A DNA stretch of 64,000 nt from an uncultured delta proteobacterium (GTDB lineage Bacteria > Desulfobacterota > Binatia > UBA9968). Below the pieces are notes generated by a model. That model saw nothing but the letters and a program-made list of their open reading frames with translations. It was not told the origin of the DNA and searched no databases. Below are positions 48,145-61,291 of this stretch, one piece after another. Made by a program: the position numbers and the translations under genes. Location: contig CAVXEP010000032.1 of NCBI GenBank assembly GCA_963760795.1, forward strand, positions 352,001 through 416,000, read 5' to 3'. Every line of letters starts with the position of its first letter. The first letter of the stretch is position 1.

Positions 48145-48571
48145 TCAACCAACCGTACGTACTCTATTCGCGTCACCGGTGAACAGCGCCGGCATCATCT
48201 TCACGAGTCTGTTTTGCAACGCGCATTCAGGGATGCACGTATTAAAGCTGGTGTGTTTAAACATGCCGGGTGCCACACATTGCGCCATTCCTTTGCCACG
48301 CACCTATTAGAGAATGGCTACGATATCAGAACAGTTCAAGAACTATTGGGCCACAGATTGCCTTTACAACTTGTCTATTGGGAGGGCTGCCTCAACCAGA
48401 CAGACGCAACGCATCGAGAGAAATACTTAAGACCGCATGGGGAAAGCGATACGTGAAAACGAGGCTCAGGAATTATCTCACAGGGTAAACGACGTAAGCA
48501 CCACGATGATTTACACCCATGTGCTGAATCGAGGCGGCAAAGGCGTGCGCAGTCCCGCGGATGGGCTGTGA
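48145..48571 (+). pseudogene. intI: integron integrase C-terminal remnant 1 (interrupted)
   Basis: [47 protein letters not shown] / [28 protein letters not shown]-terminus absent. Confidence 0.9.
48356..48488 (+). pseudogene. GIY-YIG nuclease C-terminal fragment inserted in intI
   Basis: [43 protein letters not shown]. Confidence 0.75.
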
Positions 48572-48600
48572 ATCACGGTTCCACGCTGCACGTATATTGA

Positions 48601-48732
48601 ATATACGAGACCAGCAATATTGGATATACGAGCGGCAGTGACAATTGACAACCTGTTGATTGCAGGAGTAAATTTCGAATTGATGATTGTTGGATATCCA
48701 ATATACGAGATCAGTTCACTCAATAGTTAGGC
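48601..48732 (+). promoter_or_regulatory. platform 1: putative Pc promoter and attI
   Basis: TTGACA(48645)-N18-TAAATT; ATATACGAG x3; GTTCACTCAATA-GTTAGGC (48726). Confidence 0.75.
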
Positions 48733-48788
48733 ACGTTGGCGTTGCCCGGAAGCAGTTTTCTGGCATGACAAAGAGTAAGGTGAAAAGG

Positions 48789-49568
48789 ATGCACCGTGAA
48801 ACGACGCCTATCGGAAATTGGCTCGCGATCGCCATGATTGCAACGAGCGCTGCGACTAACGTTACCATGGTGGCGGCTGCCGAGGTCGCGGTCCTGAGTC
48901 CAAACACAGTGAGGTCAGTCGTCACCGACGTTGCGGAGGCCTTTCAGCGAGAGACCGGGCACTCGGTTCGCTTCACGTTTCTTTCGACAGGAGCGGTGGA
49001 AAAACGAGCGAGGGTTGGAGAAGCTACCGACATCATTATCGCGACTGACGAGGCCATGGATCAGATGGCGAGTCAGAGTTTGGTTTTGCGTGACGCCCGC
49101 AGCGTTATTGGCCGAGTGGGTGTCGGGGTGGGCATTCGTGAAGGTACACCGAAGCCGGACATATCGAGCACGGATACCTTTAAGCAGACTCTGTTGTCCG
49201 CGAAATCCGTCACTTACTCGAACCCTGCGGGAGGAGGCGCGTCCGCAATCCATTTCTCCCGGGTCATCGAACGCTTGGGGATCTCACAGGCAATCAAGGA
49301 AAAGGCAGTGGTAGGTGGTTCAAACGTATGCGAACGTGTAGCGAAAGGTGAAGTCGACCTTTGCGTAACGCAGATCAGTGAAATTCTGCCAGTCAAGGGC
49401 GTTACTCTGGTCGGGCCCTTACCGCCGGACGTCCAGAACGTGACGACGCTTGTTGCAGCAATCTCCACTCGGTCCAGCGCCGTCGAAGCGGCAATGGAAT
49501 TCCTCACATTCTTGGTTCGCCCGTCGTCCAGAGCAAAGTTCGCCGAAGGTGGACTCGAATTTCGCTAG
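48789..49568 (+). CDS. cassette 1: ModA-like substrate-binding protein
   Basis: signal peptide; KPDISS, YSNPAGGGASAIHF, VGPLPPDVQ. Confidence 0.85.
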   Translation: MHRETTPIGNWLAIAMIATSAATNVTMVAAAEVAVLSPNTVRSVVTDVAEAFQRETGHSVRFTFLSTGAVEKRARVGEATDIIIATDEAMDQMASQSLVLRDARSVIGRVGVGVGIREGTPKPDISSTDTFKQTLLSAKSVTYSNPAGGGASAIHFSRVIERLGISQAIKEKAVVGGSNVCERVAKGEVDLCVTQISEILPVKGVTLVGPLPPDVQNVTTLVAAISTRSSAVEAAMEFLTFLVRPSSRAKFAEGGLEFR

Positions 49569-49612
49569 CAGCATAGACAGCGCTTGAGTCGGCGTGCTGA
49601 ACGTCGCGATCC

Positions 49613-49666
49613 GTCTAACCATCGGGTTGAGACGGACGAGTACGCCGCTCACCTAAAACGTTAGGC
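49613..49666 (+). other. attC 1
   Basis: GTCTAAC...GTTAGGC imperfect hairpin. Confidence 0.8.
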
Positions 49667-49794
49667 GGTACTGTGGGACGCGAACGAGGGAGTCACTTTA
49701 TGGTGGCCACGCTTCATGGCGGCACCATGAACCTCGCCATGCATCGGGCGAGCATTCCGACCACCTTGTGGTCATCCCGGCAAAGCGCCAGCAA

Positions 49795-50550
49795 ATGAGA
49801 AATCTTTTCGTAGACTCCTGGGGTACCGGCACGCTGGTGGTGCTGGTGCATGGCTCGCTCGCGACCGGCGCTGAGGAGTGGCAAGCGCAACGGCCGCTTG
49901 CCGATGAGGGGTTTCGCCTGTTGGTGTTTGACCGGCGCGGATATGGCCAGAGCCCTGTGGCGGAAGGTGAGGATTTCCTGCGCGATGCCCACGACATCGC
50001 CGCGCTTATGGGCGATGGTGCGCATCTCGTCGGTCACTCTTACGGGGGCCTCGGCGCACTGTTCGCAGCTGCCCGCCGTCCGGATGCGACGCTATCTCTG
50101 GCGTTGCTGGAGCCAGCTGTATTCGCGTTAGGCCTGCACCATCTAGCCGCGCGGGCCCTGGTGCATGAAGTTCGCGCCCTCTGGGATCAGGATCTCCCCA
50201 ATGAAGACTGGGTCATCCGCTTCTTGAAGGCGGTGGGGAGTGATCCTGATGTGCTGACCCCCGAGCTGATCGCCGCCGCCGTGCCGTTGGTGCCCGTGCT
50301 GCGCCGGGGGCGGCCTTTCTGGGACAGCGACCTGCCGCTGGCGGAGCTGGCGGCGGCGCCCTTTCCCAAGCTTGTCATATCAGGTGGACACAGCGCAGGG
50401 TTCGACGCGATGTGCGACGATCTCGCTGAACGCATCGGTGCATCTCGCGCGGTGGCGGCCGGTGCCGGCCATGAGATCCAGTTCACCGGGCGGCCTCTAA
50501 ACGAGTTGCTGCTCGCGCTGTGGCGCGGAGCGAACCCGCGGGCATGTTGA
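49795..50550 (+). CDS. cassette 2: alpha/beta hydrolase
   Basis: LVHG, DRRGYGQS, GHSYGG. Confidence 0.88.
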   Translation: MRNLFVDSWGTGTLVVLVHGSLATGAEEWQAQRPLADEGFRLLVFDRRGYGQSPVAEGEDFLRDAHDIAALMGDGAHLVGHSYGGLGALFAAARRPDATLSLALLEPAVFALGLHHLAARALVHEVRALWDQDLPNEDWVIRFLKAVGSDPDVLTPELIAAAVPLVPVLRRGRPFWDSDLPLAELAAAPFPKLVISGGHSAGFDAMCDDLAERIGASRAVAAGAGHEIQFTGRPLNELLLALWRGANPRAC

Positions 50551-50553
50551 ACC

Positions 50554-50621
50554 GCCTAACTTCCGGTTTCAGCCGACCGCCGCTCCTTCGCTCGCTTCGG
50601 CGGCTGAACCGTTCGTTAGAT
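50554..50621 (+). other. attC 2
   Basis: GCCTAAC...GTTAGAT; ACCGCCTAAC complements upstream GTTAGGCGGT. Confidence 0.9.
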
Positions 50622-50638
50622 CGGCTAAGAACAGGAGA

Positions 50639-59670: not shown

Positions 59671-59731
59671 GGGATTCCGCCCCTGAACAGGTCCGACATC
59701 GGGCGAATTCCGTGAAACTCAGGCAATTGCC

Positions 59732-59791
59732 GCATAACAATTCATTCAAGCCGAACCCGCTTCGCGGGTCGGCTTAATTCAGGCGTTAGAC
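59732..59791 (+). other. attC 13 (aadA/Xanthomonas-like, 60 bp)
   Basis: GCATAACAATTCATTCAAGCCGAACCCGCTTCGCGGGTCGGCTTAATTCAGGCGTTAGAC. Confidence 0.93.
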
Positions 59792-59802
59792 GGCACACGA
59801 GG

Positions 59803-60428
59803 ATGGGATCATTGCTCACATTGACTATTGTCTTCGTATTCGACGCTCGCGACGAGCGACCTGCTGGGTGCGGCTCGTGCCGAGGTGCCGGCGGGCACGC
59901 TTGAGATCCGTCTGGCCTCTGGGACTGCTTTGGAGCAAAGGGGACGGGAGCAGCTGGAACGCCTCCTGGCGACCCACGACCTCTCACGCTGGCTGTTCAC
60001 GCGGACCGTACAAATCCAATCACGGGTGATTCCGCACAGCCACCCGGTTCTCACACTGAACACGCAGTACCTCGACAACGACGCGGCGCAGCTAGCGAGC
60101 TTCCTTCATGAGCAACTGCATTGGTTTCTCGTTCAGAACCAGGCGAAGTTGGCGTCCGCGGTTACGGCACTGGAACGTCTGTATCCCAAGGTTCCAGAGG
60201 CGGCACGCCGAAGGGGCCAACGGCCGAGGCAGCACGTACCTCCACCTGCTCGTTTGTCTCCTCGAGTTTGACGCCGTGCGTGACGTCCTCGGGGAGACAA
60301 CGGCACGCGCTACACTCGGGGCCTTCGGGTACTACACGTGGGTGTATCGCGAGGTGCTCGAACGGCCCGAGGCAATCCGGCAGATCCTCCGCACACAGGG
60401 TCTTGACGTGCCAGACGCACGCCGTTGA
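59803..60428 (+). CDS. cassette: hypothetical exported protein with HExxH motif (frameshifted)
   Basis: GAGG + ATG 59803, hydrophobic start; PHSHPVLTL, FLHEQLHWF. Confidence 0.65.
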
Positions 60429-60431
60429 ATC

Positions 60432-60463
60432 GTCTAACAAGGCGACGGACGCCGACGTTGGGC
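60432..60463 (+). other. attC 14, internally deleted (32 bp)
   Basis: GTCTAAC-18 nt-GTTGGGC; both cores are complemented by the neighbouring cassette ends. Confidence 0.75.
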
Positions 60464-60476
60464 GGCGAGTTAGGAA

Positions 60477-61112
60477 GTGAGTGGAAGGATGGAAGCTGAA
60501 GAATCAGAAGACGTTCTCAGGTTTTGGTTTCCCGAGCTCTCGGGCGCCGACCACGCGAGGATGGTCCGCCAATTTGAGTGGTGGTTTCGCGGTGGCGCGG
60601 ATTCTGCCATTGTTGAACGGTTTGCCCAGCTGCTGGAGCGTGCGACGCGCGGCGAACTCGATCACTGGTCTCAGTGGCCACGACCGCGGCTGGCGCTGAT
60701 CATCGTTCTGGACCAGTTCTCCCGCTCCCTGTTTCGGGACACGGCGCGGGCGTTCGCACAAGATCCGAAAGCCCTCGCGCTCGCGCTTGAAGGAATTGAA
60801 ATCGGTCACTATGCGGCTCTAAACACTCCTTGGGAGAAGACCTTCTTCTTCCTCCCATTGGGGCATTCCGAGCAGCTCTACCATCTGGAGCGGGCCGTCA
60901 CACTTGCCGAGGAGCTTGCGGGAAGTGCACCACCGGAACTGCGCAAGATTTTGGAGCACTCCGCGTCGCAGGCGCGTGGACATCGAGATGTAATCGCCCG
61001 CTTCGGTCGCCAGCCTCATCGCAATGCGATCCTCGGACGGCAATCGACCCCCGAGGAACTCGACTACCTGGCTAGCGAGAAACTCGTGCACACGCGTGCG
61101 CCACCCCAATAG
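60477..61112 (+). CDS. cassette: DUF924-family protein
   Basis: VLRFWF, IIVLDQFSR, PLGHSE, IARFGRQPHRNAILGR. Confidence 0.9.
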   Translation: MSGRMEAEESEDVLRFWFPELSGADHARMVRQFEWWFRGGADSAIVERFAQLLERATRGELDHWSQWPRPRLALIIVLDQFSRSLFRDTARAFAQDPKALALALEGIEIGHYAALNTPWEKTFFFLPLGHSEQLYHLERAVTLAEELAGSAPPELRKILEHSASQARGHRDVIARFGRQPHRNAILGRQSTPEELDYLASEKLVHTRAPPQ

Positions 61113-61128
61113 TCATGCGAGCAGCGCC

Positions 61129-61163
61129 GCCCAACCGATGCAGCGGACCGCTTCGAAGCAGGC
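61129..61163 (+). other. attC 15, left half only
   Basis: CGCCGCCCAAC complements GTTGGGCGGCG; ATGCAGCGGAC follows, right arm missing. Confidence 0.7.
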
Positions 61164-61291
61164 TTTTTGCCCCCGAAATGATTGACAAGATGAAGCGAGT
61201 TGATTGATATGCAGCCGATATGAGTCCTAAATATTTACGAGGTTCGGGATATCCCGCCGGACGAACCGGCGGTTCACTTTAATAGTTCGGC
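61164..61291 (+). promoter_or_regulatory. platform 3: putative promoter and attI
   Basis: ATTGACA at 61181; GTTCACTTTAATA-GTTCGGC resembles platform 1 GTTCACTCAATA-GTTAGGC. Confidence 0.65.

Follow-up and report, generated by a model that had tools for sequence, protein, structure and literature searches.

Three remnant integron heads in an integrase-less cassette array between lexA and imuA/imuB-like genes: a probable composite of fused integrons

The window analysed here is a stretch of 64,000 nucleotides (G000:C32:352001-416000) from the genome of an uncultured delta proteobacterium, a metagenome bin of 6.58 Mb in 35 contigs that is 88.9% complete and 6.2% contaminated. Positions 48145-61850 of the window hold a single co-directional array of integron gene cassettes with their attC sites, flanked by lexA on one side and by imuA/imuB-like genes on the other. 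Every long open reading frame (ORF) in the interval 48.7-61.85 kb lies on the + strand, and imperfect palindromes of the form GYCTAAC...GTTAGRC stand between the frames. A covariance model (R1) built from eight attC sites of the window recovered 13 such sites, which all lie on the + strand and span 49610 to 59794; the remainder of the 64 kb gave no match at an E-value below 0.1. These same-orientation sites bound single-gene cassettes, as is usual for an integron. With two or more attC sites and no intact integrase gene (intI) nearby, the array also belongs among those attC clusters that have no integron integrase (CALINs). Three remnants of integron 'heads' lie within it, a head being the 3' end of intI, a TTGACA promoter and an attI site; two of the three are internal. 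The promoter/attI part of each head is referred to below as a platform, numbered 1 to 3 along the array.

To the left of the array, lexA (47369..47977, + strand; Pfam LexA_DNA_bind and Peptidase_S24) is 94-98% identical to lexA of the related genomes G013 and G019. To the right, a RecA-like (ImuA-like) gene and an IMS-family (ImuB-like) gene (61934..63998, + strand, assigned by Pfam) are 87% identical to those of G013. Both flanks are syntenic with the 546-kb contig G013:C15 (87-94% identity) and with G005, and the end of the array is fixed by the point at which this synteny resumes (61835-61852). The same layout of lexA, integron and imuA/imuB is found in G013 and G018, and the intI genes of relatives read in the same direction as lexA.

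In this genus intI lies on the cassette strand and attI lies 3' of its stop codon. An intI with a TIGR02249 score over the cut-off is present in 11/61 related genomes. The heads of 16 relatives, two of them from unpublished genomes (rows L015 and L024, from G004 and G035), were aligned with platforms 1 and 2 from the DVSTT codons of intI onward. All 18 follow a common plan, in which the stop codon is followed by two direct repeats, TTGACA, a -10-like hexamer 17-18 nucleotides further on, another repeat with its inverted copy, and finally ...AATAGTT. TTGACA is exact in 9/18 heads and has one mismatch in a further 6/18. Since the aligned heads diverge completely after ...AATAGTT, the attI crossover was placed at this motif. 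Platforms 1 (48726/7) and 3 (61285/6) end at ...AATAGTT|, homologous to the site 3' of the intact intI of relatives, and platform 2 does not.

The first head adjoins the lexA-intI spacer directly. It begins with an intI pseudogene piece (48160..48357, + strand) that corresponds to IntI residues ~261-326, as judged from tblastn with an intact IntI (L009), and to TIGR02249 positions 227-288 (94 bits). The piece is 84% identical to intI of G005 and G013, and the N-terminal ~260 codons are deleted. At 48358-48490 the window has 133 extra bases where intact intI genes are contiguous; these are the 3' remnant of a GIY-YIG gene mini-element, inserted on the + strand between the GH and the DVSTT codons. 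The reading frame of intI then resumes in tail 1 (48491..48571, + strand; 26 codons and the stop), the peptide of which is 100% identical in G005 and G009; the tblastn match with L009 covers 48473-48568 (residues 323-352). Platform 1 proper (48572..48728, + strand) comprises ATATACGAG-type repeats, the promoter Pc1 (-35 at 48645-48650, -10 at 48669-48674) and the attI1 crossover G|TT at 48726/48727. Pc1, TTGACA-18-TAAATT, matches the consensus at 10/12 positions and is the best sigma-70-like site of the region in the promoter scan. Compared with the region 3' of intact intI genes, platform 1 is 87.5-90% identical to that of G013 (90% over 241 nucleotides) and 77.5% identical to that of G005 over 240 nucleotides. 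A further copy on contig C34 of the same genome agrees with platform 1 at 146/157 positions, with the identity stopping exactly at the crossover, and the adjoining intI tail agrees at only 57/81. This step in identity points to copying or conversion of the platform itself.

The GIY-YIG remnant is 90.7% identical to a mini-element at the same place in intI of G025 (L031:6725-7010), which spans 282 bp, is bounded by 13-bp inverted repeats (ACCCCGTGAGATA) and has an intact ORF of 87 residues (PF01541, E 3.7e-13). The copy in the window retains residues ~42-87 only and is frameshifted. Eight homologues of this gene from other family members were examined, 48-100% identical, of which one belongs to the unpublished genome G076; 8/8 have inverted repeats of 12-14 bp at the ends of the ORF and stand in unrelated contexts, which suggests that the gene with its repeats may be a mobile unit. 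The literature search returned no relevant description of small GIY-YIG genes bracketed by inverted repeats. The homologues of other genomes were also considered as intI insertions and were rejected, G025 alone qualifying.

The second head lies inside the array and is more strongly truncated. Its intI tail (54775..54864, + strand; 25 residues) has lost the native stop codon through a deletion of ~19 nucleotides, the frame now ending at 54864. By tblastn with L009, 54772-54849 corresponds to residues 327-352, and these 26 codons are all that remains of this intI. To the left of the tail (~54549-54774) lies the 5' portion of an IS200-like/RAYT gene that G011, G014 and G024 carry intact (PF01797; E 3e-12 for G011); the copy in the window has lost its start codon, ~70 internal nucleotides and its 3' part. 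The RAYT frame (...LLVEPAEV) continues into that of intI (...VSTTMIY) over a shared GA(A/C)GTA, and the left junction of platform 2 is, to judge from this overlap, a microhomology join. A resemblance of 54640-54660 to the end of the first intI was rejected, the stretch belonging to the 5' end of the RAYT gene.

Platform 2 (54852..54981, + strand) has GGTATATTGG-type repeats and the promoter Pc2, with TTGACA at 54910-54915 and, after 18 nucleotides, TAAAAG at 54934-54939. It aligns with three intact heads (G078, G009 and G112) and six orphan platforms, and is 75% identical to G009 over 226 nucleotides and 76% identical to G078 over 227. Agreement with the consensus of these relatives is 47/59 in the repeats, 27/30 from -35 to -10, 32/42 downstream of the promoter and 5/16 in the attI core. 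Because homology to the nine related platforms stops at GGTCAG (54981) and the core agrees at only 5/16 positions, the core and crossover of attI2 are gone; on this alignment attI2 cannot be an entry site.

Platform 3 (61152..61288, + strand) is truncated at its 5' side and has no intI. A cassette with a DUF924 gene ends in the left half of an attC site, the GCCCAAC of which complements the start of that cassette (GTTGGGC), and this half-site is joined to mid-platform at 61151/61152, at CCGC. The platform retains TTGACA (61182-61187), a -10 hexamer GATATG (61206-61211), weaker than the GATATT present in 13/15 aligned sequences, the L and R sites, and the attI3 crossover G|TT at 61285/61286 within an intact core, TTCACTTTAATAGTT|CGGC. 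Its relatives among orphan platforms are a copy in G029:C9 (89% identical over 128 nucleotides) and one in G013:C3 (72%); both extend ~60 nucleotides further left and include the upstream repeats that platform 3 has lost. Homology to the heads of G021 and G006 is also evident (local score z ~8, reached by 0/300 shuffles). The sole cassette behind platform 3 has an attC with the R'' box GCCGAAC, which matches GTT|CGGC and indicates that attI3 was used as a crossover site.

Most of this anatomy had been anticipated in an earlier note on the same DNA, made from the letters alone. The note had described two intI C-terminal tails, which tblastn and translation now place on the + strand, each followed by GCA(C/G)GTATATTGA and then by ATTGACA-NN-CTGTTG-N10-TAAA, as is found in the sequence. 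Its third block, with ATTGACA and GTTCACTTTAATAGTT|CGGC (61272-61291) and no intI, is present as described, and platforms 2 and 3 do follow a truncated unit and a half attC, respectively. The GTTRRRY-like site that it ascribed to platform 2 is not real, given the end of homology at 54981 and the poor core. The number of cassettes that it counted in the three segments (7, 8 and 1) agrees with the attC map drawn from model R1 and from the sites found by eye.

The note had also held that the tails are diverged and not the product of a recent duplication. Tails 1 and 2 are 75.7% identical over 74 nucleotides, and each platform has closer relatives elsewhere, from which it follows that no recent duplication gave rise to them. 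Local alignments among the platforms match at 69/92 positions for 1 and 2, 67/88 for 1 and 3, and 14/17 for 2 and 3. An alignment of the three alone, as the note had suggested, is uninformative (63% mean column identity); when the relatives are included, homology beyond chance is apparent.

Each of the three platforms represents a lineage of its own, and each lineage, or in the case of platform 3 a related one, heads the lexA locus of another species. In G013 (lexA 94% identical to that of the window) the head is intact and of the platform 1 lineage; in G009 (lexA 89%) it is of the platform 2 lineage, with intI deleted to ~residue 235; and in G021 (lexA 86%) it is of a lineage related to platform 3, with a frameshifted intI. 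G018 and G015 (lexA 79-81%) have heads of other lineages, and G019, with lexA 97-98% identical to that of the window, has a head of a different lineage (best reference G011:C48). The unpublished genome G004 has lexA-linked heads as well, and the figure of 86.5% for the G019 head rests on it. The intI tail of G019 starts at the DVSTT codons, and its array has cassettes 5, 6, 13, 14 and 15 in common with the window, in a different order. The lineage of the head after lexA therefore does not track lexA similarity across species, and this, together with the shuffled cassettes of G019, suggests that heads and cassettes are exchanged between close relatives. Tandem integrons do occur in the genus: on G013:C15 a second intact intI lies 18 kb from the first, with both genes on one strand. 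Separately, contigs of the metagenome run X1 combine platform-1-like and platform-2-like parts (joints 48571/54852 and 54889/48643, with 15-18 other letters between them), which indicates putative mosaic heads in related strains.

Loss of the integrase with retention of the platform is widespread in the family. No intact intI was found in the whole assembly, a genome 88.9% complete, when intact copies elsewhere were searched for as the earlier note had proposed; the best TIGR02249 score, 94.1 bits against a cut-off of 265, belongs to the remnant at 48169-48354. The 15-mer attI core KYTCACTYAATAGTT, by comparison, occurs 113 times in 55/90 family genomes (reversed control, 4 matches) and five times in the present genome: on C12 (C12:434540, L171), C13 (C13:251486, L172) and C34 (G000:C34:89366, L173), in platform 1, and in a 'B locus'. 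With platforms 2 and 3 the genome thus has at least seven platform copies. The B locus is a fourth dead head just beyond the window, after imuB (G000:C32:417160-417443; L061:1160-1443). It comprises a four-helix-bundle gene, a helix-turn-helix gene, an intI tail of ~23 codons and a platform 84% identical to the G006 type, and an attC follows at L061:2821-2884.

Forty-one cores were sampled: 30 loci at one per genome, three from the present genome and eight from G018 (L155 and L168 are from unpublished genomes). An adjacent intI of at least 300 residues was detected in 3, a partial one in 10 and none in 28, and 5/41 cores have a contig end no more than ~400 nucleotides away. A same-strand attC follows the core in 26/41 and precedes it in 3/41, and TTGAC[AT] is found at the expected distance in 29/41. 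The left edge of homology to intact heads was measured for 47 targets. It reaches the start of the reference in 4, lies in intI more than 15 nucleotides before the D codon of DVSTT in 4, within 15 nucleotides of that codon in 8, between this point and the stop codon in 1, and between the stop codon and the -35 hexamer in 19; in 8 targets only the core-adjacent part aligns, in 2 the edge is unclear, and in 1 it is limited by a contig end. The edges are not smoothly spread: 15 fall 15-25 nucleotides past the stop codon (14 of the stop-to-(-35) class and one of the unclear) and three others of that class fall exactly at TTGACA. Several of the copies that break just after the stop codon share a further upstream motif, and these are hence regarded as copies of one truncated form and not as independent decays.

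Breaks or insertions within ~15 nucleotides of the D codon were seen at the GIY-YIG insertion (48488-48493), platform 2 (54771-54776), the G019 head (L090:~18767), the B locus (L061:~1160), the C34 copy, L141, L143, L154 and L162. This clustering could be a cleavage hot spot, the copying of one truncated form or a detection limit.

A second array with several platforms is found in G018:C21 (L184, G018:C21:126000-145999, minus strand), where three co-directional platform blocks (L184 13725-13597, 10352-10221 and 6608-6532), with attC sites between them and no intI, all retain TTGACA; the first two have cores and the third has none. Behind the second block stands a cassette whose beginning resembles that of cassette 12 of the window. 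In G072:C8 (L182 9275-14130) an attC is followed by a gene for a 319-residue Xer-like tyrosine recombinase, which is not an IntI, and by a second, frameshifted copy of it; behind both copies come the motif TCGTTCAGTTCAATCC and a platform-like attI core (two cores). The same motif precedes orphan platforms in G018, in G016 and in the C12 copy of the present genome. A T-arm-like motif had raised the possibility of tRNA genes beside orphan platforms, and none was found in 12 loci.

The interpretation that most probably accounts for these data is that the array is a decayed sedentary chromosomal integron, a composite of at least three integrons fused by illegitimate joins. A co-directional integron, with intI, attI and cassettes reading the same way, would have decayed into an integrase-less array. 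DNA from at least three integrons of different head lineages would have been joined end to end through microhomology-type joins, each of which would have removed most or all of the intI of the downstream integron and buried its platform in the array. The newest head, that of platform 1, would then have been inactivated by the insertion of the GIY-YIG gene and by deletions. That the junctions are illegitimate joins, and not attI/attC crossovers, is supported by their sequences.

Two routes by which the pieces may have come together both fit. Tandem integrons could have collapsed by deletion, a route with which the pair 18 kb apart in G013 and the dead head after imuB are in keeping. Alternatively, heads could have been replaced additively, with incoming DNA crossing homologously in or before lexA and joining illegitimately inside the resident head. 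This second route would explain why the lineages found after lexA in G013, G009 and G021 (in the case of platform 3, a related one) are stacked here, and why a truncated unit precedes each buried head. The closest relatives of platform 3 (89% and 72%), however, are orphan platforms at loci away from lexA, and G018:C21 may likewise lie apart from lexA, so the lexA-anchored route is only one option.

Both points also weigh against the composite interpretation as a whole, as do several others. In an incomplete and partly contaminated bin an intI may exist in the missing part of the genome. No internal platforms were found at E 1e-5 in nine other arrays of relatives, and the junctions of platform 2 have no independent support among the metagenome matches listed; an exact 31-mer across its left junction has no match in metagenome contigs, and a 20-mer matches three loci without similarity to the window. 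Only platform 1 passes the sigma-70 consensus scan, and the -10 hexamer of platform 3 is weak.

An artefact of assembly, in which segments of different strains were joined by the assembler, would produce a similar picture, and the earlier note had itself named such an origin as fatal to its reading. The contamination of the bin, the very high depth of cassettes 5, 6 and 14 in many community members and the fact that no sequencing run holds more than 48% of the sampled words are in its favour. The junctions, however, lie outside repeats and their left partners, the RAYT fragment and the half attC, are unique sequence; together with the synteny with G013 on both sides of the contig, this renders a chimera unlikely at platform 2 and very improbable overall. 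Moreover, two DNA runs, each from another study, have contigs that span both edges of platform 3 (X6 record 31, 61030-61535; X1 records 6, 60544-61239, and 7, 61210-61758), a support that platform 2 does not share: there one of the X1 contigs starts only at 54976, and a match to an X6 contig stops at 56023 with 29 unmatched letters beyond. The platforms might instead have entered by integrase-catalysed recombination, within unusual cassettes that end in a partial attI. Cassettes of this Delta-attI type can be excised and inserted by IntI1, according to PMC12901181, and the unit 60458-61285, bounded by an attC crossover on its left and the attI3 crossover on its right, does have a cassette-like layout. 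Nevertheless, the left edges of platforms 2 and 3 fall within a transposase ORF and halfway through an attC, respectively, and not at G|TT, and platform 2 has no crossover, which leaves this mode of entry improbable.

The recurrent break near the DVSTT codons could also reflect cleavage by the GIY-YIG enzyme, in which case the intI tails would be products of homing-type double-strand breaks. The element lies 3 nucleotides before the D codon in both G025 and platform 1, the left edge falls no more than 15 nucleotides away in the eight further or overlapping copies listed above (platform 2 to L162), and the inverted repeats around all eight gene homologues are as a mobile unit would have them. 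Against this, the element is found in intI only in G025 and the present genome, the larger cluster of 15 edges lies past the stop codon and is attributable to descent where the upstream motif is shared, and tails shorter than ~22 codons escape tblastn and can simulate a pile-up; cleavage at this site is thus considered unlikely. A last alternative concerns the persistence of the platforms, which selection may perhaps have kept as working promoters for distal cassettes and possibly for imuA/imuB. In platform 2 the stretch from -35 to -10 is the best-preserved part (27/30); among the truncated copies that align with an intact head, none is broken within the promoter, the left edges lying in intI, just after the stop codon or at TTGACA; and the 29/41 cores with the hexamer, the three G018:C21 blocks and the conserved C34 copy beside its divergent intI tail are all in keeping with such an effect. 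On the other hand, the homology by which copies were found takes in the promoter or the core close to it, and promoter-less copies are therefore under-sampled; 12/41 cores lack the hexamer (2 of these limited by a contig end), the sharp step in the C34 copy resembles gene conversion, and the -10 of platform 3 is poor. Retention of the promoter block is compatible with selection, and equally with chance and with the way in which copies were found, and a role for selection is accordingly regarded as tentative and rather less probable than its absence.

Fusion of at least three integrons by illegitimate joins thus remains the preferred explanation, and the earlier proposal of several integrons fused in tandem, which had kept their platforms as internal promoters and entry sites, was partly right. 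The fusion itself is borne out by the mosaic of three lineages, the tandem intI genes of G013:C15 and the illegitimate junctions. The view of the platforms as promoters and entry sites is only partly upheld: attI1 is intact, whereas attI2 lacks its crossover, attI3 is missing the repeats upstream that full orphan copies have, and the assembly yielded no intact intI. Since no integrase was found, the array is probably static at present, and attI1 and attI3 could serve as entry sites only if an integrase were supplied.

In the usual view of integron arrays, one terminal promoter serves the whole array and distal cassettes are mostly silent. All three platforms of the window keep TTGACA, and promoter activity of the internal ones is plausible; if the conserved TTGACA-N17/18 blocks still fire, the array would be read from three starts. 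The distance from platform 3 to imuA downstream is 750 nucleotides, no LexA box precedes imuA itself, and a role for this platform in the expression of the downstream genes is possible, if speculative. Contigs of the RNA runs X15 and X17 over 47000-62500 fall on cassettes 5, 6 and 14 only, and these may stem from other organisms because the same cassettes are very deep in DNA runs too.

The left flank retains traces of the lexA-linked head. A LexA box (ACTG-N10-CAGT) at 47340-47357, before lexA, is the only strong one in the window; the scan of the window found none in the platforms and none before imuA. From its position after lexA, the integrase may be under SOS control. The array separates the mutagenesis genes from the lexA promoter. 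Between lexA and the intI remnant lies a spacer relic (47978..48159, + strand) with GTTCAA/TTGAAC repeats and a leader motif, GGCGGAAGCC, recognised by comparison with G013, G009, G021 and G019. In relatives the spacer holds a four-helix-bundle gene of the 23S_rRNA_IVP type with runs of GTTCAA/TTGAAC on its flanks (L090:18970-19380; the assignment is a Pfam match on the G019 gene), and another such gene precedes the head of the B locus (L061:168-593). The gene is absent from the spacer of the window, where the repeats alone are kept (47985-48085). The deletions of intI in G000, G009 and G019 share the same left start, just past the GGCGGAAGCC...GCG leader motif, and have three different right ends. 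No Rfam family was found in 47000-62500.

The array follows the usual logic of integron cassettes. Each cassette begins with bases complementary to the R'' box of the attC that it carries, R' and R'' are complementary between successive cassettes, and attI1 GTT|AGGC pairs with GTCTAAC of the first attC as attI3 GTT|CGGC pairs with GCCGAAC; crossovers took place at both of these attI sites. Cassettes 1-7 (48727..54507, + strand; Pfam) encode an SBP_bac_11 protein, an alpha/beta hydrolase, a SpoIIAA-like protein, a TIR_2 protein, two RibD_C proteins and a glyoxalase. Their attC sites, located on the + strand by model R1, are at 49613-49666, 50554-50621, 51041-51127, 52328-52419, 53147-53236, 53918-53978 and 54455-54513. 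The product of cassette 4 (51278-52312) has 344 residues with a C-terminal TIR_2 domain and is possibly a defence protein, as reported for other chromosomal integron cassettes. Unit 8 (54508..54774, + strand) is the truncated IS200-like/RAYT (Y1_Tnp) pseudogene described above, with homologues in G014, G011 and G024 (PF01797 on the G011 ORF). Behind platform 2 follows a rearranged block (54982..56422, + strand; Pfam and R1), in which an ApbA/PanE-like gene (to ~56023) without an attC of its own runs into an N-truncated AHSA1-like fragment and the attC a8 (56350-56422).

Cassettes 10-16 (56417..61151, + strand; Pfam) encode RlaP, DUF2200, an unknown protein, PhzF, DUF1801, a second unknown protein and DUF924, with attC sites on the + strand at 57267-57323, 57683-57776, 58192-58294, 59107-59171, 59732-59791 and 60432-60463 and the left half-site at 61129-61151. 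Cassette 17 (61286..61839, + strand) encodes a GFA-family protein and has the last attC (61751-61839), with R'' GCCGAAC and a degenerate R' at its right end. This site, the half-site and 60432-60463 were the three found by eye. The last of these, missed by R1, is an attC-like sequence of 32 nucleotides (GTCTAAC...GTTGGGC), apparently either a minimal attC or one with an internal deletion. Cassettes 5, 6 and 14 (52443-53979 and 59180-59703) reach depths of hundreds to more than 1000 in two soil DNA runs, most of the remaining array being at ~2-30. Contig ends and loose ends fall at the attC crossovers 53013, 53147, 53237, 53977, 59180 and 59703, and these three cassettes therefore occur in many community contexts.

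To our knowledge, the origin of CALINs has been largely a matter of guesswork, because attI sites are known in a few classes only. The present array offers direct sequence evidence that arrays of different integrons can fuse and leave fossil heads behind, and that loss of the integrase usually spares the platform; the platforms themselves form a natural set of promoter/attI variants, one complete, one without upstream repeats and one without a crossover. The placement of the array between lexA and imuA/imuB also links an integron physically to an SOS mutagenesis locus. More speculatively, in this family of uncultured soil bacteria the platform might outlive its integrase as a multi-copy module of its own, exchanged or homogenised between loci; stacked at the SOS locus, the buried heads would then record earlier acquisitions in layers and convert an otherwise silent array into an operon with several promoters. 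The last head may in addition feed the mutagenesis genes, although the odds are judged to be against this extended scheme. Within the literature that could be covered, which did not include subscription journals and supplements, and with PMC8618304 among the sources, there was no report of a chromosomal array in which entire fossil heads are stacked, and none, as far as titles and opening lines of abstracts go, of an integron placed between lexA and imuA/imuB.

The integrons of Treponema reportedly also have intI co-directional with the cassettes, as described in a study of integron gain and loss, and 'inverted integrase group' is, we take it, the label for integrons of this kind. The integrons of the present genus resemble the Treponema type in having intI on the cassette strand and attI 3' of the intI stop codon, and differ from it in their position between lexA and imuA/imuB-like genes. 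CALINs are described by Cury et al. 2016 (PMC4889954) as attC clusters without an integron integrase, and loss of intI is one of the origins proposed there; in the portions of that article consulted, attI is described as unknown for most integrons and not searchable, and an intI pseudogene lies nearby in only 15/279 CALINs. The array of the window is like the CALINs and sedentary integrons of that work in being an attC cluster without a functional integrase and with a recognisable intI pseudogene adjoining. As far as that text goes, it differs in that lineage-specific attI/Pc platforms can be recognised, three of them in one array and two internal.

The Delta-attI cassettes of Gonzales Machuca et al. 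2026 (PMC12901181) are characterised, in the sections available, as short attI1 or attI2 remnants at which single resistance cassettes of clinical class 1 and 2 integrons recombine. In the window, too, partial attI sites lie within an array, downstream of its head; in contrast to what those sections describe, whole heads with intI tail, binding-site repeats and promoter are involved, from different chromosomal lineages, with illegitimate joins, and one of them lacks a crossover. Finally, gene-less cassettes that bear promoters have been described in the superintegrons of Vibrionaceae (bioRxiv 10.1101/2023.11.21.568050, as far as its accessible part shows). The array of the window shares with these the presence of internal promoters in a long array, which can relieve the dependence of cassettes on their distance from Pc. 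Whereas the Vibrionaceae promoters, in that account, reside on ordinary mobile cassettes, those described here are candidate fossil Pc promoters of former integron heads.

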